Origin: a virus
Taxonomy: Duplodnaviria > Caudoviricetes
Reading direction: 5' to 3' (one strand)
IMG/VR virus record: IMGVR_UViG_3300045971_000144
Location: 1 to 52,713 of that record
Length of the DNA stretch: 52,713 bases
The translations under genes were made by a program, and so were the position numbers. Under the pieces are notes generated by a model, which saw only the letters and a program-made list of their open reading frames with translations, was not told where the DNA came from and did no database searches. Below, in pieces: positions 10,676 to 48,449 of this stretch (position 1 is its first letter; each line of letters starts with the position of its first letter).

Positions 10676-13600
10676 ATGATTAATTCAAGCCCAGAAGTAG
10701 AACTTATTGTCAGCAACGCAAGCAACTATGCTAAAGAGCAAAAGCACGAATATGTGACTTTAGAGCATTTAGCATTAGCGTTAGTGCAGCATCAAGAGTT
10801 CAACGATCTTTTAGTTAAACTCCACATTGATGTCAACGGCATCGAGAATGATTTAAAAGAGCATATCAATGCACAGGCTTACTTAGTAAGCGTTGACCCA
10901 GCGTATGAGTCCCCTAAGCGAACTCATGCTTTAGAGCGTGTGTTTAACCGTGCGTTTACACAGGTGCTATTCAGTGGCCGCACTAACATGCTGGTGGCTG
11001 ACATTTACATTAGTTTGACTAGTGAGAATCACAGTCAAGCGCAGTTTATATTTTCACGCTATGGTATCAACCCACAAGACTTGGTTAAGTTTTACAAGAA
11101 GAACTATAACGAGGCTAAAGGTAGTAAACTCGCAACTTCGCATAAAGCAGATTCTATACTGGACGAGTTTTGTACTAACCTAAACGAAAAAGCAATCGCA
11201 GGTAAGATTGATCCGGTGATTGGGCGTGACGATGAACTGGCAGAGATTACTGAAGTATTAGCAAAGCGTAACAAAAGCAACGTGCTCATGGTTGGTGACC
11301 CAGGCGTTGGTAAAGCCCAGCCATTATATTCTAAGGTCAAAACCCCGTCAGGGTGGACTACTATTGACGAAATTAAGGTTGGCACAACAATTACTGCTCA
11401 TGATGGCAAAGATACCACGGTGATAGGCGTGTTTCCCCAAGGAAAAAAAGAGATATACGAAATTGTGTTTGCTGACGGTCGTACTGCTAGATCGTCCATA
11501 GACCATCTATGGACGATCTATGGGAAATTTGGTGAAGCATATACTACACCCGGAGGATGGAAGAGTAAACGTGTAGGCCCCACGACAATGGAATTGTCTG
11601 CAATTATTGAGAAAAGCAAAACTAATAAATCTTATATTAAAGGATTGCATATCCCGTTAATTTCACACCAGTACGATAAACAAAATATCGAGGTTCCAAT
11701 TGCTCCATACCTATTAGGAGCGTTAATTGGTGATGGGTGTTACGCTCCAACCAAAATGGGGTTTACTAGTGCCGATCAATTTATGGTTGATAAAGTTGCT
11801 ACTCTTCTGCCAGACAATTGTTTTATAAGCCAATCCGGAAAGGTAATTGATTTTAAAATTAATGGGAGAAATTTATCTGAAAAGTTCATTCCTGGTGGCA
11901 GTAGGTATAGAGGGCAGACACCAAATCCCTTAAAGGAAAAATTAATCGACCTTGGAATTTATGGACAGAGAAGTCATGAGAAATATATACCAGAACAATA
12001 TTTTAATTGCTCGAATCAGCAAAAGATTGAACTGATACAAGGATTGATGGACACAGATGGCTATGTAGGCAAAAATGGGACATTACAATATACTTCAACC
12101 TCATTCACTCTTGCTAATCAAGTAGTCGAATTAGTTCGCAGCATCGGAGGTATCGCAACCATACGTGCAAAAATTAATAACACATACTTATATAAGGGTG
12201 AACGGGTTTCATGTAAAGATGCATATACTGTTAACATTAGATACTACCAGCCTAATTCTTTAGTTACATTGCCAAGGAAACTTGAAAGAATTAGCAAAAA
12301 TTATCAATACAGCAATCTAAGACTTGGCATTTCTGACATTAAATATGTGGGTGAAGAAGAATGTAAATGCATAATGATCGACCATCCAGATCATTTATAC
12401 ATCACTGACAATTATGTCGTGACCCATAACACTGCGGTGGCAGAAGGGCTTGCGCTACACATTACACAAGGTGTAGTGCCAGAGTATCTTAAAGAGTTTA
12501 CTGTTTACAATCTTGACATTGGCTCGCTGCTCGCAGGTAGCAAATACAGGGGAGAGTTTGAAGAGAAGTTGAAAGATGTTTTACGTGCGTTAGAGACTAA
12601 GGGCAATACTATATTGTTTATTGACGAAGCGCATCAAATGCGTGGTGCTGGCGCAGGTGGTGGCGGCAGTAGCGTAGACTTTGCTAACATGATTAAACCA
12701 GCGTTAAGTAAAGGTAACATCAAAGTTATTGCGTCAACAACATGGGAAGAATACACGTCATCGTTTGAAAAGGATCGTGCGTTGATGCGGCGTTTTTACC
12801 GCATGAACATTACTGAGCCAACATCTGAAGTGGCAGTAAACATTCTCAACGGATTAAAATCGCATTTTGAGAAATTCCACAAAGGTAAGATTACAGACGA
12901 AGCGATTGACGCAGCAGTTAGTTTGAGCGTTAGATATCAGACTGACAAACGATTGCCAGACAAGGCTATTGACTTGATTGATACTGCGTGTGCTAAGAAG
13001 CGCATACTTGGTAAGCAGTTTACTATTGGCCGCGGTGAGATCGTGGAAGTGTTAAGCAAGATTACTAAAATTCCAACGGACCAAATTGGTGTTGACCAAT
13101 CAACTTCTTCAGCATCGTTAGTTAACTTAGAAGCTGATCTCAAGACTAAGTTATACGGGCAGGATCAAGCAATCGACGAAGTATTAGACAAGATTTATGT
13201 TGCTAAGTCAGGCTTGAAAGCATTGGATAAGCCAATGGGCAGTTTCTTGTTTATTGGCCCAAGTGGAGTAGGTAAGACAGAGCTTGCTAAACTGTTGGCT
13301 GCAAACTTGCAAATGAAACTAATCCGCTTTGACATGTCAGAGTATCAGGAAAAACATACAGTAGCAAAACTTATTGGTGCGCCTCCTGGCTACGTTGGCT
13401 ACGAGGATGGCAACTTGGGTGGCGGCTTACTTGTTAGCGAGATTGAGAAGAATCCTAACTCTATTGTGCTGTTTGATGAAATAGAAAAAGCACACCCAGA
13501 TGTGTCTAACGTTTTGCTGGCACTTATGGATGAAGGTGCAGTTACATCAAGTAATGGTAAGAAAGCAGATGCTCGTAATACTATTGTTATTATGACGTCT

Positions 13601-14092
13601 AACTTGGGTGCTGCTGAAAGCGAGAGGAATAGCATCGGGTTTGGTAATATTAAAGATCGTTCCGGTGAAGATGACAAAGCAATTAAAGAGTTCTTTAAAC
13701 CAGAGTTCCGCAATAGACTCGATGGCATTTGTAAGTTTAAGAAACTTGATGAACTTAGTATTAAGCGTGTTGTGCACAAGTTTATGGCTGAAGTTGAAGA
13801 GTTGTTGTCAGAGAAGAAGATTAAAATCAAGCTCACTGAAGCGGCTGTTGACTTCTTGGCTAAAGAAGGCTTTGACCCGGCGATGGGTGCACGGCCAATG
13901 GCACGTAAAATACACACGTTGATTAAAGTGCCGTTGAGTAAGAAGATTTTGTTTGAGGGTGTGTCGGCAAAAGCGTTAGTAATGGTTGATGTGGTTGATG
14001 ACAAAATAGTGCTTAAAGTTATAAACGCCACAGTGTCTCCAGAACAAGCAGTAATTGACGAAAATGGTTTCATCCAAATACCAATGGCGTAA
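10676..14092 (+). CDS. clpA: ClpA-like AAA+ chaperone/protease subunit containing an intein
   Basis: Clp N-domain (HEYVTLEHL), DPVIGR, GDPGVGK/T, LFIDEAH, GPSGVGKT, RFDMSEY, LFDEIEKAH, IGF loop and GARP; no ClpB middle domain. Confidence 0.93.
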   Translation: MINSSPEVELIVSNASNYAKEQKHEYVTLEHLALALVQHQEFNDLLVKLHIDVNGIENDLKEHINAQAYLVSVDPAYESPKRTHALERVFNRAFTQVLFSGRTNMLVADIYISLTSENHSQAQFIFSRYGINPQDLVKFYKKNYNEAKGSKLATSHKADSILDEFCTNLNEKAIAGKIDPVIGRDDELAEITEVLAKRNKSNVLMVGDPGVGKAQPLYSKVKTPSGWTTIDEIKVGTTITAHDGKDTTVIGVFPQGKKEIYEIVFADGRTARSSIDHLWTIYGKFGEAYTTPGGWKSKRVGPTTMELSAIIEKSKTNKSYIKGLHIPLISHQYDKQNIEVPIAPYLLGALIGDGCYAPTKMGFTSADQFMVDKVATLLPDNCFISQSGKVIDFKINGRNLSEKFIPGGSRYRGQTPNPLKEKLIDLGIYGQRSHEKYIPEQYFNCSNQQKIELIQGLMDTDGYVGKNGTLQYTSTSFTLANQVVELVRSIGGIATIRAKINNTYLYKGERVSCKDAYTVNIRYYQPNSLVTLPRKLERISKNYQYSNLRLGISDIKYVGEEECKCIMIDHPDHLYITDNYVVTHNTAVAEGLALHITQGVVPEYLKEFTVYNLDIGSLLAGSKYRGEFEEKLKDVLRALETKGNTILFIDEAHQMRGAGAGGGGSSVDFANMIKPALSKGNIKVIASTTWEEYTSSFEKDRALMRRFYRMNITEPTSEVAVNILNGLKSHFEKFHKGKITDEAIDAAVSLSVRYQTDKRLPDKAIDLIDTACAKKRILGKQFTIGRGEIVEVLSKITKIPTDQIGVDQSTSSASLVNLEADLKTKLYGQDQAIDEVLDKIYVAKSGLKALDKPMGSFLFIGPSGVGKTELAKLLAANLQMKLIRFDMSEYQEKHTVAKLIGAPPGYVGYEDGNLGGGLLVSEIEKNPNSIVLFDEIEKAHPDVSNVLLALMDEGAVTSSNGKKADARNTIVIMTSNLGAAESERNSIGFGNIKDRSGEDDKAIKEFFKPEFRNRLDGICKFKKLDELSIKRVVHKFMAEVEELLSEKKIKIKLTEAAVDFLAKEGFDPAMGARPMARKIHTLIKVPLSKKILFEGVSAKALVMVDVVDDKIVLKVINATVSPEQAVIDENGFIQIPMA
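11315..12430 (+). mobile_element. class 3-type intein with LAGLIDADG endonuclease in the ClpA Walker A motif
   Basis: Inserted at GK|T; starts AQPL and ends VVTHN; block B HLW, block F CKCI; YLLGALIGDG and LIQGLMDTDG motifs; 372 aa. Confidence 0.92.
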
Positions 14093-15343: not shown

Positions 15344-16195
15344 ATGAAGAAAAAACAAAACTTTGCTAAAAAAGCAACTGCTCCAGCGAGCGTGTCAGAC
15401 GCACCAAACGTAACATTGGCGGGCAATACGCACACCAGTATTATTTCCCAAATCAAAGACATTCAAGCACAGCAAGCAATTAGTAATCCGTCACCTCAGG
15501 GTGTAGCATTTGATTTCTCCAAGTGCCACTTACACATTGGCTTACCTTGCTATGGTGGTTTAGTGTTAGAGTCAACAATGACGAGTTTCATTAAGTTTAT
15601 CCTTATGTGTTCTAAAGTTGGCTTGTCGTGGTCAATGGACACAATGGTAAACGAGTCCCTTATTACTCGTGGACGCAATAACTTGATGGCTAAGTTGATG
15701 ACAAACAAGACAGCAACCCACTTTATGTTTGTTGATGCTGATATCAAATTTGAGCCAGAGTCGATTTTCCAGATGATGGCCGCTGACGTTGACATTGTGT
15801 CCGGGGCATACCCAAAGAAGGCCTACCCCATCGCACTAAACATCAATTTGAAGCAGCAAACAAAAATTAAAGGCCCATTATTTACTGTAGATACTGCGGC
15901 GACAGGATTCCTAATGTTTAAACGTAAGGTATATGAGGACTTGATTGCTGCCCACCCCCAAACAAAATATGTTGATGACGTGGGATTAGGAAAGCAATAT
16001 GAGCCGTTTATGTATGCCATCTTTGATTGCATCATTGATGAAAAGGGCCATTACTTGAGTGAAGATTGGACCTTCTGCCGTAGGGCATCAGCTCTTGGGT
16101 ATGATATATGGTGTGATGGCCGTGTTTTGCTTGACCATACTGGCACCCATACCTTTAAGGGCGATTTGTCGCTGATCACTGGACCTAAACCGTAA
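15344..16195 (+). CDS. GT-A fold glycosyltransferase
   Basis: SLITRGRN, FMFVDADI (DxD), ATGFLM, YLSEDWTFC and LDHTG motifs. Confidence 0.8.
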   Translation: MKKKQNFAKKATAPASVSDAPNVTLAGNTHTSIISQIKDIQAQQAISNPSPQGVAFDFSKCHLHIGLPCYGGLVLESTMTSFIKFILMCSKVGLSWSMDTMVNESLITRGRNNLMAKLMTNKTATHFMFVDADIKFEPESIFQMMAADVDIVSGAYPKKAYPIALNINLKQQTKIKGPLFTVDTAATGFLMFKRKVYEDLIAAHPQTKYVDDVGLGKQYEPFMYAIFDCIIDEKGHYLSEDWTFCRRASALGYDIWCDGRVLLDHTGTHTFKGDLSLITGPKP

Positions 16196-16802
16196 CAAGT
16201 TTATTGCGACAATTATCACCATGCCATCTTACCAATGCACCGCGTTGGTAAGATTTTTCACAATGAATACATTTAAATTTCGGTTGATTTTTATTTGATT
16301 CGGAATTTTTACGTTTTGATTCAGGGGAATGGGTTTTGTTATACATAGGATGATTAGTTCCCACCCTGTTTTCTCTGCTTACTAACCACCCTTTAGTGAT
16401 TCCATCACTATATCGTTTGCTCATTGCAGCAGTCAACTCACGTGGAGATGGTTTTCCTGCCAATGACTTCGAAATTTTTTGCTTAATTTCCTCAGATAAG
16501 TGTCTACCTGGTGCCCCGCCATCCATACCATTTTCAGGTATGCAATTTGCCCATTCGCTAGATTCAACAATGCGATTTTCAGTAGAAAACGACATTGCAA
16601 ACTTTGATAATTCCTCTTGATCCGTAAATAATTTATACCATATAGTGTCAACATGTTTGCCATGCTTAAATAAATGGCGCTTCCAATATTTCCCTGATCC
16701 ATAATACGTTAACGGATTTTTACGTGTAGTCTTACCAAAATATTTTAAACCAGTGATTTTATGTTGTTTAACGTATAGCCACGTCGGACGATAAATACCC
16801 AT
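16185..16802 (-). CDS. free-standing GIY-YIG-like (Seg-like) homing endonuclease with NUMOD3-like motifs
   Basis: LYVKQH..TGLKYFGKT, YYGSG, WAN..PENG..GG, HLSEEIKQKIS, HSPESKRKNS and a C-terminal CIHC..H..NC. Confidence 0.8.
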   Translation of the reverse strand: MGIYRPTWLYVKQHKITGLKYFGKTTRKNPLTYYGSGKYWKRHLFKHGKHVDTIWYKLFTDQEELSKFAMSFSTENRIVESSEWANCIPENGMDGGAPGRHLSEEIKQKISKSLAGKPSPRELTAAMSKRYSDGITKGWLVSRENRVGTNHPMYNKTHSPESKRKNSESNKNQPKFKCIHCEKSYQRGALVRWHGDNCRNKLVTV

Positions 16803-27235: not shown

Positions 27236-27241
27236 TATTTG

Positions 27242-27814
27242 ATGCAGCCATCAACTAAAGTAAGACCATATGTTTATAATGGCATCAATCCAATAACTGG
27301 CGAATTTTATATTGGTTACCGAGAAATAAACACAAAACCATCTCATATAGATATACTTGAGTATAGAACTTCATCAAAAGTAGTAGAGCCGATATTTGAT
27401 ATGATGACCTGGCAAGTGTTGGCAGAATTTGAAACAGGAAAAGATGCATATGATTTTGAGCAACTTTCAATATACGAGAATTGGGACAATCCATTGTTGT
27501 TAAATGAAAGATGTTATTTTCAGAAAGAAAGATTTAAAAGCAAAAAAGGTTCTGTTCCGTGGAATAAAGGAAAACCCGGGCTACAGTCTCATTCTGAAAC
27601 TACTAAAGAAGTTATTCGTAAAAAACGAGCAACACAAGTATTTTCTTCTGAGACTTGCATCAAAATTAGTAAATCATTAGTTGGGAATAGTAGAAGTAAA
27701 AAGCCTCGGTCGATAGAACAAAATTTGGCAAAATCTTCAAGACAGACTGGACAAAAAAGAGGTCCATATAAAAAGAAGTCAGTAAATAGCATACAATCAC
27801 AGTTACGCAGCTAA
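27242..27814 (+). CDS. free-standing GIY-YIG homing endonuclease
   Basis: YVY..INPITGEFYIGYR, AYDFEQ, PLLLN, PWNKGK, HSETTKE; immediately upstream of the DNA polymerase. Confidence 0.75.
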   Translation: MQPSTKVRPYVYNGINPITGEFYIGYREINTKPSHIDILEYRTSSKVVEPIFDMMTWQVLAEFETGKDAYDFEQLSIYENWDNPLLLNERCYFQKERFKSKKGSVPWNKGKPGLQSHSETTKEVIRKKRATQVFSSETCIKISKSLVGNSRSKKPRSIEQNLAKSSRQTGQKRGPYKKKSVNSIQSQLRS

Positions 27815-27834: not shown

Positions 27835-30045
27835 TTGAGTTACATTGACGCAATTCTCGATAAACAGCGAGATAAAATTCACGTTGTAGAACGTGACGAA
27901 ACGGGTAAGCGTGTTTACACTGAGTTCCCAACCGAATATGTCCTTTATTATGAGGATTCAAAAGGTAAACACCAAACCATTTACAGAACACCTGTATCTA
28001 AGTTTACAACACAATCCAATACTCAGTTTAGAAAAGAGTTAAAAATACATAGTAGTAAAAAACTATGGGAAAGCGATGTAAATCCAATCTTCCGTTGCTT
28101 AGAGAAAAACTATCTCGGCGCAAAATCCCCAAAACTCCATACATGCTTTTTCGACATTGAGTCCGACTTTGACTTAGCACAGGGCGGTTATGCGCCAGTG
28201 GATGATCCGTTTAATATGATCACGGCTATTACTGTTTACTTAGACTGGTTGGACAAACTCATCACCTTAGCAGTGCCGCCTAAGACTTTAACTTGGGATC
28301 AGGCAACTGAGATCGCAAGTTTCTTTGACGACACATACCTGTTTCATACCGAAGCAGAAATGCTTGACACGTTTTTAAACTTGATTGACGATGCGGATGT
28401 GATTAGCGGATGGAACAGTGAGGGCTATGACGTTCCTTACACTGTTGGACGCATTATGCGGGTGCTGGCTAAGGACGACCTACGCAGGCTTTGCTTGTGG
28501 GATCAAATGCCAAAGAAGCGAGAGTTTGAACGCTACGGTGCGAAAAGCATGACGTATGATTTATGCGGCCGTGTGCACCTGGACTATATGCAACTGTATC
28601 GCAAGTATACATATGAAGAACGCCACAGCTATTCCCTTGATGCAATCGGCGAGTATGAACTTAACGAGCGCAAGTTGGCGTACGAAGGATCATTGGATCA
28701 GTTATACAATCAAGACTTTAAAAAGTTCATCGACTATAACAGGCAAGATACTCGCTTGCTTGCTCGTTTAGACGAAAAACTACGCTTCTTAGACTTGGCA
28801 AATGAGTTGGCACATGATAATACAGTGTTGTTGGCGACAACAATGGGCGCGGTTGCAGTGACTGACCAAGCTATTATTAACGCAGCGCACAAACAGGGAT
28901 TGGTTGTTCCATCCAAACCGCCGTATGTTGAAGAGACTGATGACGATATTGACGACGATGACAGCGACGGTCGAGCCGCTGGAGCGTATGTAGCACAGCC
29001 TAAGGTAGGTATGCATCAGTATATAGGTGCTATCGACATTAACTCACTATACCCATCCACAATTCGTGCCCTTAACATGGGACCAGAAACTATCGTGGGG
29101 CAATTACGGCCAGTAATGAGCGAACAATATATTGCGTCTAAAATGGCAGACAAGATTGTTAACCACCAAAAGCGTAAAGGTATGTCATTTGCCGCAGCAT
29201 GGGACGGATTGTTTGGGAGTCTTGAATACATTGCAGTAATGGCCCAAGAGAAAGACACAGAGATTATCATTGACTGGGAAGGTGGTGAGGCCACTGCCCA
29301 TAGTGCTGCTGATGTGTGGTCGCTTATCTTTGAAGGTGGACAGAAGTGGATGCTAAGTGGCAACGGCACTATTTTCCGCTACGACATTGAAGGCATTATC
29401 CCCACATTGCTTGCTACTTGGTATAAAGAGCGTAAAGAGCTACAGGCTAAGAAGAAGGAAGCAACCACTAAGGAAGATATTGCGTTCTGGGATAAGCGAC
29501 AGTTAGTGAAGAAGATTAACTTGAACTCACTGTATGGTGCGTTGTTGAATCCAGGCTGTAGATTCCACGATTTTAGGATTGGGCAGTCCACTACACTGAC
29601 TGGGCGTGTTATTGCCAAGCACATGGATGCGTTTACAAACGAGTGTATTACAGGCAAGTATGAACACGATGGTAAAGCAATTGTTTACGGTGATAGCGTA
29701 ACTGGTGACAGCCTCGTTAAAACTGATTCGGGCGAAATCACTATTGCGGAGATGTTTGTGCAGTGTGCTGGGCACGATGTTTACGGCGAAAAGGAATATG
29801 GCTTTGATACTTCCGCTAAAGTAGTAGGGTTTGATATATGTAAAGATCAACCAATTATGAGTGAAGTATCGTTTGTGATTCGGCATAAGACTAAGAAGAA
29901 GTTATATAGAATAACAACAGAAAGCGGTGAGTCTGTTACAGTAACAGAAGATCATAGTATCATGGTAGACCGCGATGGATTCACAATAGAAGTTAAACCA
30001 ACACAACTTACATTAGATGACTTAATAATCAAGCTTGTGGCATAA
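27835..30045 (+). CDS. polB: family B DNA polymerase, N-terminal part fused to split-intein N-fragment
   Basis: ExoI FFDIES, ExoII SGWNSEGYD, ExoIII YNRQD, motif A DINSLYPS, motif B KINLNSLYG, then YGD followed by intein sequence; TTG start with AAGGA SD. Confidence 0.95.
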   Translation: MSYIDAILDKQRDKIHVVERDETGKRVYTEFPTEYVLYYEDSKGKHQTIYRTPVSKFTTQSNTQFRKELKIHSSKKLWESDVNPIFRCLEKNYLGAKSPKLHTCFFDIESDFDLAQGGYAPVDDPFNMITAITVYLDWLDKLITLAVPPKTLTWDQATEIASFFDDTYLFHTEAEMLDTFLNLIDDADVISGWNSEGYDVPYTVGRIMRVLAKDDLRRLCLWDQMPKKREFERYGAKSMTYDLCGRVHLDYMQLYRKYTYEERHSYSLDAIGEYELNERKLAYEGSLDQLYNQDFKKFIDYNRQDTRLLARLDEKLRFLDLANELAHDNTVLLATTMGAVAVTDQAIINAAHKQGLVVPSKPPYVEETDDDIDDDDSDGRAAGAYVAQPKVGMHQYIGAIDINSLYPSTIRALNMGPETIVGQLRPVMSEQYIASKMADKIVNHQKRKGMSFAAAWDGLFGSLEYIAVMAQEKDTEIIIDWEGGEATAHSAADVWSLIFEGGQKWMLSGNGTIFRYDIEGIIPTLLATWYKERKELQAKKKEATTKEDIAFWDKRQLVKKINLNSLYGALLNPGCRFHDFRIGQSTTLTGRVIAKHMDAFTNECITGKYEHDGKAIVYGDSVTGDSLVKTDSGEITIAEMFVQCAGHDVYGEKEYGFDTSAKVVGFDICKDQPIMSEVSFVIRHKTKKKLYRITTESGESVTVTEDHSIMVDRDGFTIEVKPTQLTLDDLIIKLVA
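29695..30042 (+). mobile_element. split intein N-fragment (116 aa)
   Basis: Block A SVTGDSLV after YGD; block B VTVTEDHSIM; ends at the stop codon. Confidence 0.9.
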
Positions 30046-30074
30046 ATACTATATGGAGATAGGAGTATTAGCAT

Positions 30075-31031
30075 ATGATTAAATGTCTAGAATGTGGTTT
30101 TGAATCTGAGAGGTTACAATGGACGCACTTCAAATATAAGTGCACTGGTAAATTTAAGAACGGTGTCGAATATATGGCAGCGTACCCAGGGGCAAAAGTT
30201 GTAAGTAGTACGCTCGCAAAGTGTACCGCAGTTACACTAAATAACCTTGTCAAGAAATATGGGCAAGAAGAAGGCAAAACACGATGGGAGAGGTACTGTG
30301 GCAGGCAATCCAATTCTAACACGTACGAGTATAAGAAGGAAAAATACGGTTGGTCCAAGGAAGAGTTTGACGAGTATAATTCATCCAGGGCGCAAACATT
30401 ACAAAAAATGATTGCTCGCCACGGTGAAGAAGTAGGTGCTGCTAAGTGGGAAAATTACTGTCTCCGCCAGGCGTACACAAATACTAAAACATATTTCATC
30501 GAAAAATACGGGCAAGATGTAGGGACATTTCTATATCTAGCAGTCAACAAGAAAAAGAGTCTTGCTAGTAATCCGGCGCTGTTGGCAGAGCATTTACATA
30601 TTACTGAGGAAGAAGCTACTCAGATCATAATGAGTAGAAAATCCACTCAACATTGCAGCAACTTAGAAAACGAGTTTGTTGTAATGCTAGAAGACGCGAT
30701 CGGTTTCAAATTAGACCATACAAGCGTTAACTCTCCGTTCGGGAAATGGTCTACTCTTCTGAACTCATATGTGATTTATGATGTAGTCCACAAGAATTGC
30801 ATTATAGAATTTAACGGCGACTACTGGCATGCTAACCCAGATATCTATGTCGAATCTGCACTAATCCGTGGCCGCAGTGCGGTTGACATATGGCACAAAG
30901 ACATGCTAAAGTTGAAGACTGCCGAAGACTTAGGATTTAAGGTGATAACGGTATGGGAACAAGAATTTAAAAGCAGCAAAGCACTAACTATTGAAAGGGT
31001 AATCAAATGGATGTTATCAGAACTAAAGTAA
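30075..31031 (+). CDS. Vsr-like / DUF559-type endonuclease between the split-intein halves
   Basis: N-terminal CLECG..H...C zinc motif, repeated KYG.E.G..W..YC.RQ units, C-terminal YD..IIEFNGDYWH..D..K..GFKVITVWE. Confidence 0.8.
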   Translation: MIKCLECGFESERLQWTHFKYKCTGKFKNGVEYMAAYPGAKVVSSTLAKCTAVTLNNLVKKYGQEEGKTRWERYCGRQSNSNTYEYKKEKYGWSKEEFDEYNSSRAQTLQKMIARHGEEVGAAKWENYCLRQAYTNTKTYFIEKYGQDVGTFLYLAVNKKKSLASNPALLAEHLHITEEEATQIIMSRKSTQHCSNLENEFVVMLEDAIGFKLDHTSVNSPFGKWSTLLNSYVIYDVVHKNCIIEFNGDYWHANPDIYVESALIRGRSAVDIWHKDMLKLKTAEDLGFKVITVWEQEFKSSKALTIERVIKWMLSELK

Positions 31032-31132
31032 AGTCAGTCGAATGTCTAGGAGAAGTGGATGACTACGTTTATGATATAAGCGTTACTGGTCAAGACCCAG
31101 TATTCTTCGCAAACGACTTGCTCGTTAAAAAT
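31007..31132 (+). mobile_element. split intein C-fragment (42 aa)
   Basis: VKSVE..YVYDISV..FFANDLLVKN followed by +1 Thr; blocks F and G. Confidence 0.9.
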
Positions 31133-32026
31133 ACCGATTCCGTTTATTTCAGTGCATGGCCTATTATCAAGAAAGAAGTTGACGCTGGAACATTGGAATG
31201 GAACAAGGACATTTGCTTGCAGATGTATGATGCTATCGCTGACAAGGTTAACGAGAGTTTCCCCGCTATGATGGCTGCGGCTTGCAACTGTCCAACTGAG
31301 CGTGGTGCGTTGATTAAAGGCGGACGAGAATTAATTGCCACCTCTGGTTTGTTTATTAAAAAGAAGCGTTATGCTGTATTGATTTACGACATGGAAGGCA
31401 CACGTTTGGATCAATACGATCACGAAACTTCCAAGAAGAAAGGTGTGCACTTTGGACATGGCAAAGTAAAAGCAATGGGCTTAGACTTGAAGCGTTCAGA
31501 TACACCTCGCGTAGTACAGGACTTTTTGAGTGACTTACTTTACGATACGCTAATTAACGTAGACAAAGAAAAGATCATTACTAAAATCCGCGACTTTAAA
31601 CTGAAGTTTGCTGAAATCCCTGCATGGGAAAAAGGCACACCTAAGCGTGTGAACAATTTGACCAAATACACCAAAGAGTTTGAACTTACTGGTGGCTGTA
31701 GGGTTGGACACGTGATGGCAGCGATTAACTGGAACAGACTGAAAAAGATGCATGGTGATAACTACAGCCCAAGCATCGTAGACGGTATGAAGGTTATCGT
31801 GTGCAAACTTAAAAACAATCCGCTTGAGTATACCTCTGTTGCTTACCCAACAGACATTATGCACATACCGGACTGGTTTAAAGAGCTACCGTTTGACAAC
31901 GACCTTATGGAGACAACTATTGTTAACCAAAAGGTGGAGAACTTATTAGGCGTGCTAAACTGGGACATAACTAACAATACTGAAGTTAAGACCACATTTA
32001 GCTCGTTATTTACATTTGGAGAATAA
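31007..32026 (+). CDS. polB: family B DNA polymerase, C-terminal part preceded by split-intein C-fragment
   Basis: After the intein C-fragment: TDSVYF (completes YGDTDS), KKRYA, KAMGLDLKRSD. Confidence 0.93.
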   Translation: MDVIRTKVKSVECLGEVDDYVYDISVTGQDPVFFANDLLVKNTDSVYFSAWPIIKKEVDAGTLEWNKDICLQMYDAIADKVNESFPAMMAAACNCPTERGALIKGGRELIATSGLFIKKKRYAVLIYDMEGTRLDQYDHETSKKKGVHFGHGKVKAMGLDLKRSDTPRVVQDFLSDLLYDTLINVDKEKIITKIRDFKLKFAEIPAWEKGTPKRVNNLTKYTKEFELTGGCRVGHVMAAINWNRLKKMHGDNYSPSIVDGMKVIVCKLKNNPLEYTSVAYPTDIMHIPDWFKELPFDNDLMETTIVNQKVENLLGVLNWDITNNTEVKTTFSSLFTFGE

Positions 32027-38791: not shown

Positions 38792-39469
38792 ATGTCGTTT
38801 AACAAACAAAAATGTGATCCAGAATTGGGCAGAAAAGTACACGAGCACTTAGTTAAATGCGGTGTAGAAACACCGCAAAAACAAAACAGTATCAGCCGTA
38901 GTGATAAGATTGACCTTATTGAAAAACATTTTGCTGTCATTATGGAAACACTTGGATTAGATCTAACTGACGACAGTTTAGAGGAAACGCCAAAACGTGT
39001 GGCCAAAATGTTCGTAAATGAAATATTTTTTGGGCTTGATTATGAGGCATTCCCCAAATGTACTACAGTTGACAACAAAATGTTATACGACGAAATGGTC
39101 GTTGAAAGAAACGTAAATGTACAATCTAACTGCGAACATCACTTTGTTGTCATTGATGGTGTTGCAACGGTCGCTTATATTCCTAACAAACGTGTATTGG
39201 GCCTTAGTAAGATCAATCGCATCGTTGAGTACTTTAGCAAACGCCCGCAAATCCAAGAACGATTGACCGAGCAAATCTTCCACGCATTACAGTTCATCCT
39301 TGATACTGAAAATGTTGCTGTGGTAGTTGACGCTAAACATTTCTGTGTTCGTGCTCGTGGCGTTGAAGACACTGGCTCAAGCACAGTAACAAGCAAACTC
39401 GGCGGTGGATTTAAAACAGATCCATCAGTGAGATCAGAGTTTATGCGTTTAGTTTCTGTTAGGAGTTAA
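38792..39469 (+). CDS. folE: GTP cyclohydrolase I
   Basis: ETPKRVAK, SNCEHHF, GLSKINR, RPQIQERLT and HFCVRARGV motifs. Confidence 0.96.
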   Translation: MSFNKQKCDPELGRKVHEHLVKCGVETPQKQNSISRSDKIDLIEKHFAVIMETLGLDLTDDSLEETPKRVAKMFVNEIFFGLDYEAFPKCTTVDNKMLYDEMVVERNVNVQSNCEHHFVVIDGVATVAYIPNKRVLGLSKINRIVEYFSKRPQIQERLTEQIFHALQFILDTENVAVVVDAKHFCVRARGVEDTGSSTVTSKLGGGFKTDPSVRSEFMRLVSVRS

Positions 39470-41071: not shown

Positions 41072-41551
41072 ATGATGGCAAAATATTTCAGTACAAAAAC
41101 ATACAATCAAATCGGGCCAGTTGCTTATAGGCAATGGCGCTCAGATTCGCATTGCAATCTAATTCATGGGTATGCTATGTCGTTTCATTTCGAATTTGAA
41201 GCCGACACGTTAGATGCTCGTAATTGGGTAACCGATTTTGGTGGGTTGAGACCACTTAAAGATAAATTAGAAGAATGGTTTGATCATACATTGCTGGTCG
41301 CACAAGATGACCCACAGCGAGAAGCATTGATTCATCTTGGTAAAATTGGTGTTGCAAAAATCACAGAAGTAGAAAAGACAGGGTGTGAAGGTATCGCTGA
41401 CTTTCTTTATGAGTATGTGAATACTATTTTCTTACCAAACTGCGGCACTGAAGAAGCCAAGCGAGTCTGGTGTACTCGCGTTGAAGTTCGTGAAACTGCA
41501 AACAATATGGCTGGTCGGCAAGGCCGTAGGGAAGATAACGAGTTTATTTAA
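41072..41551 (+). CDS. queD: 6-carboxytetrahydropterin synthase QueD
   Basis: HCNLIHGY, DFGGL..LK, FDH, TGCE and VEVRET..N motifs. Confidence 0.9.
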   Translation: MMAKYFSTKTYNQIGPVAYRQWRSDSHCNLIHGYAMSFHFEFEADTLDARNWVTDFGGLRPLKDKLEEWFDHTLLVAQDDPQREALIHLGKIGVAKITEVEKTGCEGIADFLYEYVNTIFLPNCGTEEAKRVWCTRVEVRETANNMAGRQGRREDNEFI

Positions 41552-43184: not shown

Positions 43185-43778
43185 ATGATTTTCTATACAT
43201 ACGCCTACATACGAAATAAAGATTCTGTTGCCGGAAAAGCAGGATCTCCGTATTATATTGGCAAAGGCAAAGAAGATAGAGCTTATGAAAATCACGGAAA
43301 AATTCGTGTACCTAAGAATAAAAACTATATTGTAATTTTGGAAACTAACTTAACCGAAGTTGGTGCATTTGCATTAGAACGACGATATATAGAATGGTAT
43401 GGTCGAAGAGATTTAGGCACCGGTATATTACACAATAGAACCAATGGCGGGGATGGTAGTTCGGGGAGAATTTTTAAGTATAGCGAAGAGTCCAAGTTGA
43501 AAATGTCTCTTGCCAAAAAGGGCAAGGCACCGCCAAATAAAGGTAAAAAGTGGAATAAAGAGACAATACAAAAAATGTCTGACGTAAAGAAAGGTAGTAA
43601 AAATCCACGCTTTAATGCTATAATTAAAGATGAAACAAGATTAAAAATATCTGCATGGCAGAAAGGTGTACCTAAATCTAAGGTAAAATGTAGTCATTGC
43701 GGAATAGAAACATCGTTAATGAATATTGCAAGATGGCATGAAAATAATTGTAAGGCTGTAAAAAATGAAAAAATATAA
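43185..43778 (+). CDS. free-standing GIY-YIG-like homing endonuclease
   Basis: FYTYAY..PYYIGKG..R, AFALE..I..YGR, LHNRTNGGDG, NUMOD3-like repeats and CSHC..H..NC. Confidence 0.8.
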   Translation: MIFYTYAYIRNKDSVAGKAGSPYYIGKGKEDRAYENHGKIRVPKNKNYIVILETNLTEVGAFALERRYIEWYGRRDLGTGILHNRTNGGDGSSGRIFKYSEESKLKMSLAKKGKAPPNKGKKWNKETIQKMSDVKKGSKNPRFNAIIKDETRLKISAWQKGVPKSKVKCSHCGIETSLMNIARWHENNCKAVKNEKI

Positions 43779-44709
43779 ATATTCGGAAATTTTTGGAAAA
43801 ACAATCCAGGGCGAAGGTCGTTACACTGGTTATCCAACAGTATGGATTAGATTTTGGGGTTGTAATTTTGAGTGCAACGGTTTTGGTCAAGATACACCGG
43901 AAGATCCTACTACATATAACCTAGATTATCAAACTATAGATGTGTCGTCTATTAAACACATGAACGATCTCCCAGTGTTTAGTAAAGGATGTGACAGTTC
44001 GTACAGCTGGTCGAAGAAATTTGCACATCTTGCAAATACAAGTTCGGTATCAGATATATGTGATAAATTAGAATATTATCTAATTTCAGAGAGTAATCCG
44101 GGGGGAAAATTTTTACATCCAGAAAGTAAACAATGGACACATCTTGCATTTACGGGTGGTGAGCCAATGATGAATCAATCTGCTATTGTAGACATTATGC
44201 AAGAATTTGATAGGCGTGAGAACTCACCAAAATATGTAACCATAGAGACAAACGGTACGCAAATGATACGGGAAAATTTTCAGGCGTATTTCGGTAGTAA
44301 AGTGATTACTGAATTTCTAAAGGGCTTTACTCTTGCTGGGCCGTTATTTAATGACATAGAAGGAAGAGAATTGTTCTGGAGTGTCAGCCCGAAGTTATAC
44401 CTCAGTGGGGAGAAATGGGAAGATGCTATTAGGTCTGAAATAGTAGCAGGATATAAACTTGTTTCAAATGTAGGACAATTAAAGTATGTGTCGAATGGTA
44501 GTGCACGATCGTGGGACGAAGTTAAACAGGCTACAAAAGAATATGCTGCTAGATCAATTGATTGGCCTGTATGGATTATGCCTGTAGGGGCAGATATCGA
44601 AGGGCAGAATAAAGTCGCAGCAAGAATTACAGAGGGTGCTGTTGAAAGAGGATACAATGTTGCTGCAAGAGTTCACACATATATTTTCGGAAATGTTGTT
44701 GGTAAATGA
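43765..44709 (+). CDS. queE: 7-carboxy-7-deazaguanine synthase QueE (radical SAM)
   Basis: EIF..IQGEG, IRFWGCNFEC..(insert)..GCDS, FTGGEP, IETNGT, SVSPKL, RVH. Confidence 0.92.
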   Translation: MKKYKYSEIFGKTIQGEGRYTGYPTVWIRFWGCNFECNGFGQDTPEDPTTYNLDYQTIDVSSIKHMNDLPVFSKGCDSSYSWSKKFAHLANTSSVSDICDKLEYYLISESNPGGKFLHPESKQWTHLAFTGGEPMMNQSAIVDIMQEFDRRENSPKYVTIETNGTQMIRENFQAYFGSKVITEFLKGFTLAGPLFNDIEGRELFWSVSPKLYLSGEKWEDAIRSEIVAGYKLVSNVGQLKYVSNGSARSWDEVKQATKEYAARSIDWPVWIMPVGADIEGQNKVAARITEGAVERGYNVAARVHTYIFGNVVGK

Positions 44710-45802: not shown

Positions 45803-46227
45803 TGTTTAGCAAGTTAAAAAAGTTTTTCACAAGTAGCAATGTACCTGACGAAGTTTTTGTGCCGCCACCAGTTGCGGAGAAGAAACCACGATCACCACGC
45901 AAGAAAAAAGTTGAGGTGCCAGTCTTAACTGACGCAGTTAACATTGAAAAAGTAAAAGCAACCGCCGCTGGCGAGCCGTGGGTTAATGTCACTGGTGTTG
46001 AGATTGATCTTGACAATGTTGGTGCTGGCAGTTTTAATTTAGATTTCAATGACATATTTGTGGCACGGTTAGTCAAAGCAGGCTACCGTGGTAATACTGA
46101 CATTCAAATCGTGGACCAATGGTTTACTGAAATTTGTAGAAACATTGCTCTAGAAACATTTGCCCAAGACATGGCCGATCCCGATAAACGCACTGAATGG
46201 ACTAATAAGTCAACCCCTACTTCTTGA
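45802..46227 (+). CDS. hypothetical phage protein
   Basis: EKVKATAAGEPWV..G.F.LDFNDIFV..L..AGY..IVDQWF..IC; GAGGAG SD. Confidence 0.7.
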   Translation: MFSKLKKFFTSSNVPDEVFVPPPVAEKKPRSPRKKKVEVPVLTDAVNIEKVKATAAGEPWVNVTGVEIDLDNVGAGSFNLDFNDIFVARLVKAGYRGNTDIQIVDQWFTEICRNIALETFAQDMADPDKRTEWTNKSTPTS

Positions 46228-46726
46228 TTTTAGAATAAGTCAACCCTTCATGTCCATTAGACCTTCCTTTCTTGGCCATTGATATAGCCAGTCGTCTTTC
46301 AGCAGGCATTGGCCCATTAACACGCCCAGTTAGTATGTTTGATATTTTCTGGCCAGTCGACGGGTTTCTTTTTGTCCCCAATCGTGCGGCAGATATTTTC
46401 TGTTTGGTGTCAGATCGAACAATTCTTCCAATAACACCGCCACCGTCAACCCCCGTTTCAGGTTTAAGGTTTGCCCAGTTCGGTGATTCAACTATGTCAT
46501 GCGATGCCGAAAATGCTAATGCTTCTTCTTTAAGTAATTCTTCATTATCATACTGATGACACCAAATAGTCGAAACGTCTTTGCCATGGACTGCCAAATG
46601 CCTCTTCCAATATTTTCCAGAACCTAAATATTTGATTGGGTCTTTTCTAGTTGTTTTACAGAAATATTTTAATCCAGTTTGATTATGTTGTTTTATCATT
46701 AGCCATGTAGGCTGATAAATATTCAT
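46217..46726 (-). CDS. free-standing GIY-YIG-like homing endonuclease (paralog of 16185-16802)
   Basis: IYQPTWLMIKQH..TGLKYFCKT..YLGSGKYWKRHL, WANLKPETG. Confidence 0.8.
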   Translation of the reverse strand: MNIYQPTWLMIKQHNQTGLKYFCKTTRKDPIKYLGSGKYWKRHLAVHGKDVSTIWCHQYDNEELLKEEALAFSASHDIVESPNWANLKPETGVDGGGVIGRIVRSDTKQKISAARLGTKRNPSTGQKISNILTGRVNGPMPAERRLAISMAKKGRSNGHEGLTYSKIKK

Positions 46727-46838: not shown

Positions 46839-47828
46839 ATGAAATACTTACTTATTGACTTGGCAAATTGTTTTTTTAGGGCAATACATGCGAGTGCACG
46901 TGGCTCTGATCTTGAAGAGCGTGTGTCCTTTGCTGTGCACTGTGCGCTTCAAAGTATCGCGTCTGCTTGGCGTGATCAGAATGCCACACACGTTGTGGTA
47001 ATGTTGGAGGGTCACTCGTGGCGTAAGGATTTTTATAAGCCATATAAAGCGAACAGAGAAGTCGCACGTATGGCACAGACTGAGAAAGAGAAGAAAGACG
47101 GTGAAGCGTTTTTTGCTGCGCTAATTGACTTGACTGACTTTCTGATCAACAAAACTAACGTAACCGTTATACAGCATCCAAACTTGGAAGCAGACGATTT
47201 AATCGCAGGCTGGATACAAAATCATCCACTGGATGAGCATGTTATTGTTAGCACTGACACAGACTTCTACCAGTTACTTGCTGAAAACGTCACCCAGTAT
47301 AGCGGTGTATTGCGTCAACTACACACAATAAACGGTGTGTTTGATGCCAAGGGCAAAGCAGTCATTGACAAAAAGACGGGCTTTCCAATCGCAGTGCCAG
47401 ACCCAAAATACATCTTGTTTGAAAAATGTGTTCGTGGTGACCCCACTGACAATGTGTTTAGTGCTTACCCTGGTGCGAGATCAAAAGGCAGCAAAAACAA
47501 GATTGGTATACAGGAGGCATTCGCGGACCGAAATAACAAAGGGTTCAATTGGAATAATTTTCAATTACAACGATGGGTCGATCATAATGAAGTAGAGCAT
47601 AGAGTTTTGGATGATTTTCTCCGAAATGAGATTCTCATTGATTTATCAAAACAGCCACCAGAAATAAGAAAAATTATTGACGACACAGTGTTAGCGTCAG
47701 CCACCGCAAAAAATAAATTAATGATTGGTGCTCAATTTCTTAAGTTCTGTGGAGTTCATAATTTAGTAAAGTTATCTGAACAGTGTGACACTTATGCTAA
47801 GATATTATCTGCCGTTTATGCCACCTAG
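46839..47828 (+). CDS. rnh: T4 RNase H-like 5'-3' exonuclease / flap endonuclease
   Basis: LLIDLAN, WRKDFYKPYKANR, LEADDLIA, VSTDTDFYQL, RGDPTDNV and LIDL motifs; TTGCGA-17-TACACT promoter at 46805-46833. Confidence 0.9.
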   Translation: MKYLLIDLANCFFRAIHASARGSDLEERVSFAVHCALQSIASAWRDQNATHVVVMLEGHSWRKDFYKPYKANREVARMAQTEKEKKDGEAFFAALIDLTDFLINKTNVTVIQHPNLEADDLIAGWIQNHPLDEHVIVSTDTDFYQLLAENVTQYSGVLRQLHTINGVFDAKGKAVIDKKTGFPIAVPDPKYILFEKCVRGDPTDNVFSAYPGARSKGSKNKIGIQEAFADRNNKGFNWNNFQLQRWVDHNEVEHRVLDDFLRNEILIDLSKQPPEIRKIIDDTVLASATAKNKLMIGAQFLKFCGVHNLVKLSEQCDTYAKILSAVYAT

Positions 47829-48449
47829 TATCCAATTTTTATGTTGCTTGTATTTTCCGCTTACGACTCTACTTATACTGCTTTGATCTAAGTTAAATGT
47901 GCGCTGAAAATCATACATAGTCATCGTCACAGTGTTATTGGTAATTGTATTATGAAAAATATATTTATTATGATTATACATATATGAATTTCTTCCTGAA
48001 ATACGTGCTCTCACTTCTGGTCGATTCATGGCATGAACATGTGTGGCATGTTCAGGAAGTTTAGTCCAATGATTATTCCCTGTTTGTTTTTTAATTGTTT
48101 CAGGAGATCGTTTGGTCCCGACCATTCGATCACTCATACGTTTTCGTTCTTCAGCAGACATACAAAGTCGCCCGCCGCCTCCTCCAGTTTCTGGTATTTT
48201 ATTTGCCCATTCAGAACTTTGGACAATGTTCCATAAATTACTGTAATACCGCCCCAGATCGTTTACCTCAATTTTATTACACGATTCATGTAAAATAACC
48301 GTGTCTATATCTTTATTACCATAAGTATTTAAATGCTTAAGCCAATCAACACCAGACCCTTTATATTTGAATGGATTCTGAGTTGTTTGCCCTAAATATT
48401 TAAACCCAGTTTTTCTATGAGTCTTAATGTAAAGATAATAAATATTCAT
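47805..48449 (-). CDS. free-standing GIY-YIG-like homing endonuclease with C-terminal NUMOD1/HTH-like domain
   Basis: YYLYIKTH..TGFKYLGQT..YKGSG, WANKIPETGGG, SSISRVVSGK...KNW. Confidence 0.8.
   Translation of the reverse strand: MNIYYLYIKTHRKTGFKYLGQTTQNPFKYKGSGVDWLKHLNTYGNKDIDTVILHESCNKIEVNDLGRYYSNLWNIVQSSEWANKIPETGGGGGRLCMSAEERKRMSDRMVGTKRSPETIKKQTGNNHWTKLPEHATHVHAMNRPEVRARISGRNSYMYNHNKYIFHNTITNNTVTMTMYDFQRTFNLDQSSISRVVSGKYKQHKNWILGGINGR

Follow-up and report, generated by a model that had tools for sequence, protein, structure and literature searches.

How does a phage obtain its replicative DNA polymerase when the gene for this enzyme is broken inside the catalytic motif? The question is raised by positions 27835-32026 of the IMG/VR virus record IMGVR_UViG_3300045971_000144 (Duplodnaviria; Caudoviricetes), a stretch of 52,713 nucleotides that was analysed at its full length and is referred to here as the window. 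The gene of a family B DNA polymerase (PolB) is divided there between two open reading frames (ORFs) that carry the halves of a putative split intein, and a third ORF, encoding a Vsr-like endonuclease, lies between them. We consider it highly probable that this is a live fractured gene, that is to say, a mobile cassette consisting of a split intein and a free-standing Vsr-like endonuclease that occupies motif C of the polymerase of an uncultured jumbo phage from a pond.

The polymerase gene is divided in motif C

ORF reading of the window gave three ORFs on the plus strand of the locus: the N-terminal half of PolB, the middle ORF and the C-terminal half of PolB. Gene 1 (27835-30045, 736 amino acids) begins with a TTG codon that is preceded, 6 nt upstream, by AAGGA, and its residues 616-626 read ...IVYGD/SVTGDS..., the slash marking the extein-intein junction. 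Residues 1-620 form the N-extein (27835-29694), which contains the exonuclease domain, motifs A and B and the YGD of motif C; the rest of the gene encodes the 116-amino-acid N-terminal half of the intein (IntN) and ends in a TAA stop codon (29695-30045). Gene 3 (31007-32026, plus strand, 339 amino acids) opens with the 42-amino-acid C-terminal half (IntC, 31007-31132), which ends in LLVKN and is followed by TDSVYF, the beginning of a C-extein of 297 amino acids including Thr+1 (31133-32026, with the stop codon). The same three-gene anatomy had been given in an initial annotation of the DNA, and it proved exact to the residue, with each ORF at the position assigned to it.

Two domains of family B polymerases were detected in gene 1 (PF03104, E 8.7e-15; PF00136, E 1.3e-22), and the motifs of the T4 gp43 type were visible as DINSLYPS (motif A), KINLNSLYG (motif B) and YGD plus TDS (motif C). 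On the phrog_262 profile, which has 856 positions, gene 1 covered positions 10-578 (E 9e-138) and gene 3 positions 578-852 (E 3.5e-45). The exteins abut at position 578 with neither gap nor overlap and, therefore, removal of the 158 intein residues would leave an uninterrupted enzyme of 620 + 297 = 917 amino acids with the YGDTDS motif restored. Trans-splicing that would rebuild this polymerase, as initially proposed, is supported by the junctions, the profiles and this abutment. The closest polymerases are those of jumbo phages: gene 1 showed 52% identity to the enzyme of Sinorhizobium phage Phosso and 47%, over 98% of the gene, to that of Pseudomonas phage PA5oct, the closest cultured one in the phage collection. 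No match to the 4.2-kb stretch was found by megablast against 50,697 phage records.

The intein halves and their predicted chemistry

IntN corresponds to residues 621-736 of gene 1. Its Ser1 (Ser621) stands straight after YGD, the NX motif is Arg683-His684 and block B is Thr704-Glu-Asp-His707; Ser1, the Arg-His of the NX motif and Thr-x-Asp-His were invariant in 28 of 28 rows of an alignment of relatives (A2). In IntC, block F is YVYD with Asp23, the terminus is Lys41-Asn42 and the +1 residue is Thr43. Residues Y20, V21, Y22, D23 and N42 of IntC, together with T43, D44 and S45 of the extein, were invariant in all 31 rows of a second alignment (A3). The junction set of Ser1, penultimate Lys and Thr+1 that had been noticed at the outset was confirmed. 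The insertion point YGD/TDS, with Ser1 and Thr+1, is presumably the classical archaeal 'pol-c' site, a point on which the literature search gave nothing usable.

Gene 1 residues 622-711 matched TIGR01445 (intein_Nterm) with 44.9 bits against a cut-off of 24.5 (50.6 in a six-frame search), and gene 1 reached 36.4 on PF14890, for which the cut-off is 35.8. The nearest solved chain was 9hth_A (E 2e-11), an Aes-type PolB intein whose printed sequence is that of the gp43B1 intein of Aeromonas phage Aes144. The available passages of PMC10189870 report the NX motif, in which His follows Arg or Lys, as specific to Ser1 inteins. Judging from its motifs, the intein would belong to class 1, within the cysteine-less Ser1 subgroup, every residue of the ester pathway being present. 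The assisting penultimate His is absent.

A structural model of the complex between IntN (with five extein residues) and IntC obtained a score of 0.78, the best control reaching 0.01; of the solved complexes, 116 of 157 attain the mark applied, compared with 2 of 215 mismatched pairs. The model runs agreed in at least 93% of contacts, the predicted local distance difference test (pLDDT) value of the partners was at least 77, and the NX stretch packed against IntC residues 21-24. This result may reflect likeness only, because split-intein complexes have already been solved.

According to the proposed mechanism, the two polymerase halves would be translated separately and the 116-amino-acid IntN and 42-amino-acid IntC would fold together into one HINT domain. 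Ser1 would form the first ester, Thr+1 would take over the N-extein, and cyclisation of Asn42 would release the 917-amino-acid polymerase with its YGDTDS motif.

The middle gene encodes a predicted Vsr-like endonuclease

The middle ORF (30075-31031, plus strand, 318 amino acids) has its own ATG start codon, and its last 25 nt (31007-31031) overlap gene 3. The zinc motif, the KYG repeats and the EFNGDYWH stretch that had been attributed to it were all located: C4, C7, H18 and C23; KYG at residues 61-63, 90-92 and 144-146, with RHG at 115-117; and EFNGDYWH at 245-252. The Cys-Cys-His-Cys residues were invariant in 29 of 29 rows (alignment A4). The ORF matched phrog_22677 (E 3.6e-63) and belongs to a family of 527 proteins at E ≤1e-5. 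No Pfam family was detected in it at E ≤0.01, and MTES_1575 gave a weak match in 27 of 39 members of the family. A phmmer search against the sequences of the PDB returned nothing meaningful (best E 0.28, an unrelated chain). A profile search ranked three Vsr chains first, at E values of only 0.37-0.49.

An AlphaFold model of the ORF, built from 39 sequences, had a pLDDT of 91.3. Foldseek with the whole model gave no match at E ≤0.001, the values for Vsr (1cw0_A) and the homing endonuclease I-Bth0305I (3r3p_A) being 0.015 and 0.23. When residues 193-318 (30651-31031) were superposed with VIA-align, a Z of 11.6 was obtained for Vsr 1cw0_A (root mean square deviation 2.9, 113 residues) and of 11.1 for I-Bth0305I 3r3p_A (deviation 3.1, 96 of 97 residues aligned). 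Residues E198, D236, E245, N247 and H252 were invariant, and D276 was conserved in at least 90%, of the 39 rows of the family. In the profile alignment with Vsr, which at E 0.37 lacks significance by itself, E245 falls opposite Phe62, N247 opposite His64, H252 opposite His69 and D276 opposite Asp97; such correspondences are described for this nuclease family in passages of PMC2677866 and PMC3239194. E198 and D236 were assigned to the EDxHD motif by their order and invariance only. The model therefore predicts a Vsr-like fold with an EDxHD composite motif, and the initial identification of a free-standing Vsr-like endonuclease is borne out at the level of the predicted fold.

I-Bth0305I, the EDxHD prototype (PMC3239194, in part), shares with this nuclease the Vsr-like catalytic domain and the conserved Glu, Asp, His and Asp. 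It is intron-encoded and carries NUMOD motifs at its N-terminal side, whereas the endonuclease of the window has a Cys-Cys-His-Cys knuckle and helical KYG repeats instead. These N-terminal 192 residues (30075-30650; pLDDT 92.8 in the AlphaFold model), presumed to bind DNA, found no counterpart at Z ≥5 among 48,161 chains (best 4r1h_B, Z 4.3), and a Ros-type zinc finger compared with residues 1-52 gave a Z of 3.0. This half may be an undescribed DNA-binding module of the family.

The spacer and the possibility of an intron

The spacer between gene 1 and the endonuclease gene (30041-30076, plus strand) was examined through the upstream regions of relatives and through pairing tests. It contains CATAAATA at 30041-30048, overlapping the stop codon of gene 1. 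Of the 40 distinct upstream regions taken from relatives, 31 contained ATAAATA and four the full T4-type TATAAATA. An inverted repeat (30051-30060 and 30067-30076) holds the Shine-Dalgarno sequence AGGAG (30061-30065) in its loop, and its 3' arm reaches the ATG of the endonuclease. According to the available passages of PMC2677866, an RNA hairpin lies at the endonuclease start in 15 of 16 fractured genes and often holds TATAAATA. Across the relatives, pairing of the two arms was found in 75.3% of cells, compared with 17-51% when the partner was slid, and 49 of 500 shuffles reached 75.3%; the fold in the window alone had a z of -0.22. Scans for sigma-70 promoters and terminators gave nothing above shuffled sequences.

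The middle ORF might in principle be removed at the RNA level as part of an intron, or the split might be an artefact of assembly; both explanations are extremely unlikely, and nothing was found in their favour. No Rfam family was found at E ≤1 in positions 29500-31500 on either strand, and no RNA run was among the sequencing runs listed for the stretch. The intein motifs of the two halves complement each other, the stop and start codons are in frame, and the layout recurs in phages that have been isolated and sequenced. A 10,275-nt contig of the DNA run X1 covers the whole stretch with zero differences, although X1 is perhaps the source of this DNA and is thus not independent.

The penultimate lysine and the case against splicing

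Several observations weigh against a spliced polymerase. The penultimate residue of IntC is Lys41 (AAA, 31127-31129); in relatives, all 45 of the distinct junction contexts have CAT or CAC at this position, either of which differs from AAA by two bases, and the penultimate Lys occurred in none of the 77 loci of the IMG/VR survey described below in which IntC was found. In addition, the His of the block F pattern N-H-x-F-F in Aes144, Klebsiella phage KP13-7 and Salicola phage SCTP-2 is absent from the window and its near relatives. With Lys at the penultimate position and no block F His, the intein appears to lack two usual helpers of Asn cyclisation. IntC alone matched PF14890 (profile positions 117-155) at E 0.0065 with a score of 16.7, under the Pfam cut-off. 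The related Aes-type intein trans-splices in vitro to only about 30% (PMC11923092, in part), so that efficiency cannot be taken for granted in a natural split intein of PolB. The hairpin at the endonuclease start is suggestive only and lacks statistical support as a regulatory element. Finally, the window is a linear contig of 52.7 kb that is estimated to represent 15% of a genome, so a second polymerase elsewhere in that genome is possible.

One question is whether the intein halves have ceased to splice and act as docking modules, in which case the polymerase would be a non-covalent two-chain enzyme. The loss of the penultimate His to Lys and the absence of the block F His speak for this, two-chain precedents, in genes fractured by endonucleases without inteins, exist in Aeh1 NrdA and Aeromonas phage gp43 (PMC2677866 and PMC3045599, both in part), and the complex model shows association, not chemistry. 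We regard this as improbable. The residues of the ester chemistry, namely Ser1, Thr-x-x-His, the NX His, the block F Asp, Asn42 and Thr+1, have all been kept and were invariant among the 28 and 31 aligned relatives. The ratio of nonsynonymous to synonymous substitution rates (dN/dS) of IntN was 0.06 in a cassette comparison of relatives for which 10 locus pairs were in the usable range and two non-overlapping ones were computed, probably from the same two lineages and hence effectively one comparison. Moreover, the two metal-binding aspartates of YGDTDS stand on opposite sides of the break, where 158 intein residues would stay lodged, a position from which we infer that a docked enzyme would be compromised. 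The Lys-Asn ending is also present in the contiguous inteins of SCTP-2 and of the proteins P0199 and P0194, where no polymerase could form without splicing.

The wider sample indicates that the penultimate Lys is not a private defect of the window. Among the 120 best relatives of the C-half, 10 proteins have Lys-Asn/TDS; together with the contiguous inteins P0199 and P0194, which have it as well, they make up 12 of the 94 proteins that bear an intein. In SCTP-2, too, the contiguous mini-intein ends in Lys-Asn/Thr. Only His or Lys occupied the penultimate position in the 90 proteins in which the junction pattern was found, and two pairs of near-identical IntC sequences differ there (P0131 and P0133; P0211 and P0217). 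On the tree of C-exteins the Lys state changes eight times, with at least six of the changes forced, and part of this scatter must come from cassette transfer. The penultimate His is position 6 of block G, an assisting residue, in the available text of PMC4031507, and inteins that splice without it are named in titles cited there. No mention of a Lys-Asn variant was found in the literature passages at hand.

Distribution of the cassette among relatives

In IMG/VR, 313 stretches encode a relative of the nuclease, and 80 loci, selected as carriers of the nuclease gene, were kept. The N-terminal half of PolB with IntN was located upstream of the nuclease gene in 80 of 80 loci and IntC downstream in 77; the other three, which gave no IntC match, end near the end of the nuclease match. 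The insertion register was that of the window in 68 loci (YxD/S ... HN/TDS) and that of the Aes phages in 12 (YxDTD/S ... HN/S). The 120 best C-half relatives comprised 90 split proteins, four that unite IntN and IntC in a single chain and 26 with an uninterrupted YxDTDSxYF. All the stages of the published model, namely split, contiguous and empty, coexist among them. At the junction, the uninterrupted polymerases read YADTDSSYFSAY in phage Phosso and YGDTDSVYFSAW in the 26 relatives.

The one-chain relatives P0199, P0194, P0201 and P0183 have no endonuclease, and two of them end in Lys-Asn; they represent either the state before fracture or a fusion that followed loss of the nuclease gene. 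When three DNA runs were searched, two diverged contigs (runs X1 and X3) were seen to skip the element, one joining position 29627 to 31194 (side 29), the other 29571 to 31144 (side 73); these contigs are less than 95% alike, and the letters between the sides are unread. This is a hint that element-free relatives perhaps live alongside the phage of the window.

Movement of the cassette

The history of the cassette was compared with that of the polymerase. The register changes once on the nuclease tree (Shimodaira-Hasegawa approximate likelihood ratio test, SH-aLRT, 95) and twice on the IntN tree, where a single change is possible, compared with five times on the tree of N-exteins, at least four of them forced. 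Locus L050 has the nearest polymerase to that of the window among the loci but a distant cassette: the exteins are 84% and 81% identical, whereas the cassette shows 54% (IntN), 63% (nuclease) and 67% (IntC) identity. In locus L008 the situation is the opposite. The profile of DNA identity falls where the cassette lies. Between loci L010 and L031, in the comparison that also gave the dN/dS values, the synonymous divergence (dS) of the cassette is 0.27-0.39, and that of the exteins is saturated. The polymerases P0129 (Lys-Asn/TDS) and P0174 (His-Asn/S) group as sisters (SH-aLRT 97), and their IntC sequences are dissimilar. Taken from sequence comparison, this is clear evidence that the intein and the nuclease move together, apparently as one unit, between polymerase genes.

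In the proposed cycle, the endonuclease, translated from its own start codon, would cut the intein-less alleles of co-infecting relatives, and repair of the cut would copy the whole cassette in. Such homing cleavage receives indirect support from the movement of the cassette among relatives. It is conceivable that the cassette is instead decaying, with an inactive endonuclease, and persists as a frozen relic that no longer moves. The general model of the homing cycle predicts that the nuclease loses its activity after fixation, and the presence of the cassette in 80 of 80 loci makes it look fixed in that sample. However, the sample was picked by the nuclease gene and is thus uninformative on fixation, the 26 uninterrupted polymerases point the other way, as do, weakly, the two diverged contigs that skip the element. 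The nuclease ORF is unbroken, none of its 39 aligned rows departs from the invariant catalytic residues, its dN/dS was 0.18 in the comparison already mentioned for IntN, and the trees of the cassette conflict with those of the exteins. Decay is, in our judgement, very unlikely, and we retain the reading of a live, mobile cassette.

Sibling cassettes with the junction DTD/S and Ser+1 were recorded at loci L061, L064-L067, L069, L070, L072, L078, L079, L086 and L087, as well as in proteins P0171, P0174, P0192 and P0202. They sit two codons further on, in close kin of the polymerases that carry the YGD/TDS cassette. A speculative extension, which we hold to be rather doubtful, is that the two sibling cassettes compete for the same polymerases in freshwater jumbo phages, and that Lys in the Thr+1 lineage is a repeatedly selected, fully functional substitute for His in both split and contiguous inteins. 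The offset of two codons would make an occupied allele uncuttable by the rival endonuclease and, under this competition, neither cassette could displace the other because the offset blocks the rival enzyme.

Comparison with known fractured genes and split polymerases

The layout of the locus is already known, and the window represents a further member of a published, large and exploited family. In the fractured genes defined by Dassa et al. 2009 (PMC2677866, in part), the halves of a split intein lie on either side of a free-standing gene for an endonuclease, in many cases a Vsr-like one, and the Vsr-like family was first described there. As in the window, two host ORFs bear the intein halves with the nuclease between them, and a late-promoter-like ATAAATA lies near the nuclease start. 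The overlap of the endonuclease with the downstream half, 25 nt here, is 6-69 bp in 15 of those loci (PMC2677866 section 14). The hosts differ: the passages at hand list gp41, NrdA, NrdJ, IMPDH, DnaE, ligase and terminase, with PolB only as an intein-less fracture or in the N. equitans case, whereas the host here is PolB. The upstream hairpin of those genes is the feature that lacks statistical support in the window.

The same layout is present at the PolB1 locus of the T4-like Aeromonas salmonicida phages Aes123 and Aes144 (JN377900), where gp43B1 with the N-intein, a putative VSR endonuclease and gp43B2 with the C-intein follow one another in the GenBank annotation. As in the window, PolB is split in motif C, Ser1 and the NX motif are present, a catalytic Cys is absent, IntN has about 116-120 and IntC about 40 amino acids, and the nuclease gene overlaps the gene of the C-half. 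The Aes144 nuclease is homologous to that of the window (37% identity, E 1e-41) and the inteins are 38% identical. The differences lie in the junctions, the Aes144 register being YIDTD/S with Ser+1 and His-Asn and that of the window YGD/TDS with Thr+1 and Lys-Asn, and in a further split (gp43A) of the Aes polymerase.

Klebsiella phage KP13-7 (OP617745), in which the three coding sequences are annotated as hypothetical, has the register of the window (YGD/SVTGDS ... HN/TDSVYF) and a homologous nuclease (35% identity, E 2e-36) directly downstream of the N-half. It is a cultured enterobacterial jumbo phage, its intein is 36% identical and ends in His-Asn, not Lys-Asn. The Pseudomonas jumbo phages MIJ3 and PA5oct carry a homologous split PolB intein with 42% identity, described in the available part of PMC6892783; their register is DTD/S with Ser+1, and their 561-amino-acid nuclease is of a different build, annotated as Hef-like and named HNH in that paper. 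The PolB of SCTP-2 (MF360958) shares the register and the Lys-Asn/Thr junction (35% intein identity), but it is a single chain with a mini-intein of 163 amino acids and without an endonuclease gene, presumably the state before fracture.

In view of the Aeromonas phages, KP13-7, MIJ3 and PA5oct and the genes of PMC2677866, the initial annotation overstated the novelty of the layout. Less ordinary are the Thr+1 register in split form, the recurrent penultimate Lys, the out-of-register sibling cassettes in near-identical polymerases and the joint movement of intein and nuclease. No described Thr+1 split PolB intein was found among the few papers that a literature search returned; the supplementary alignments of the Mootz laboratory may contain Thr+1 or Lys-Asn examples.

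Other elements in the window

A second interrupted gene is located at 10676-14092 (plus strand). It encodes a ClpA/ClpB-like AAA+ protein of 1138 amino acids whose first Walker A motif is broken by an insert of about 390 amino acids (GDPGVGK/AQPLYS ... VVTHN/TAVAEGLA) with a LAGLIDADG_3 domain. The first residue of the insert is Ala, block B reads His-Leu-Trp, block F reads Lys-Cys-Ile and the end is Thr-His-Asn/Thr; with these motifs the insert shows the Trp-Cys-Thr signature by which the available passages of PMC2807308 define class 3 inteins. The six-frame search with TIGR01445 did not detect this insert.

Selfish nuclease genes are unusually abundant on this contig. Matches to phrog_314 ('homing endonuclease') were found in five small ORFs, at 27239-27814 (+), 16185-16802 (-), 43185-43778 (+), 46217-46726 (-) and 47805-48449 (-), and NUMOD3 motifs in three of them. 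The ORF at 27239-27814 is placed directly upstream of the polymerase gene and opens with YVY...GEFYIGY, which looks GIY-YIG-like. Homologues of GTP cyclohydrolase, QueD and QueE are encoded at 38792-39469, 41072-41551 and 43765-44709 (plus strand), the last of them abutted by a NUMOD3 endonuclease ORF. By homology, these three genes suggest a 7-deazaguanine modification of the phage DNA.

Implications

The intein had also been put forward as a possible new orthogonal ligation tool, a proposal that has to be narrowed. The niche of cysteine-less PolB split inteins is already filled by Aes/CL/CLm, LCGC14 and PolB16 (PMC12707363 and PMC10189870, in part), the Aes123 PolB1 family being the parent of the engineered CL and CLm tools (PMC11923092 and PMC12707363, in part). 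According to passages of PMC12707363, the split intein LCGC14 proved orthogonal to CLm, a derivative of the Aes intein, and its identity to the Aes intein is 35.0%. What remains is the Thr+1 residue, which differs from the four PolB split inteins named in section 7 of PMC12707363, all of them Ser+1. For protein engineering, a natural Ser1/Thr+1 split pair with a Lys-Asn end and about 38% identity to the Aes intein deserves consideration as a bench candidate without amounting to a discovery. In the recurrent switch between His and Lys, nature provides an inexpensive experiment on the assistance of Asn cyclisation. For the biology of phages, the locus adds clear evidence that intein and nuclease travel together between polymerase genes and, if our reading is true, it would be one more case of an essential replication enzyme that relies on protein splicing.

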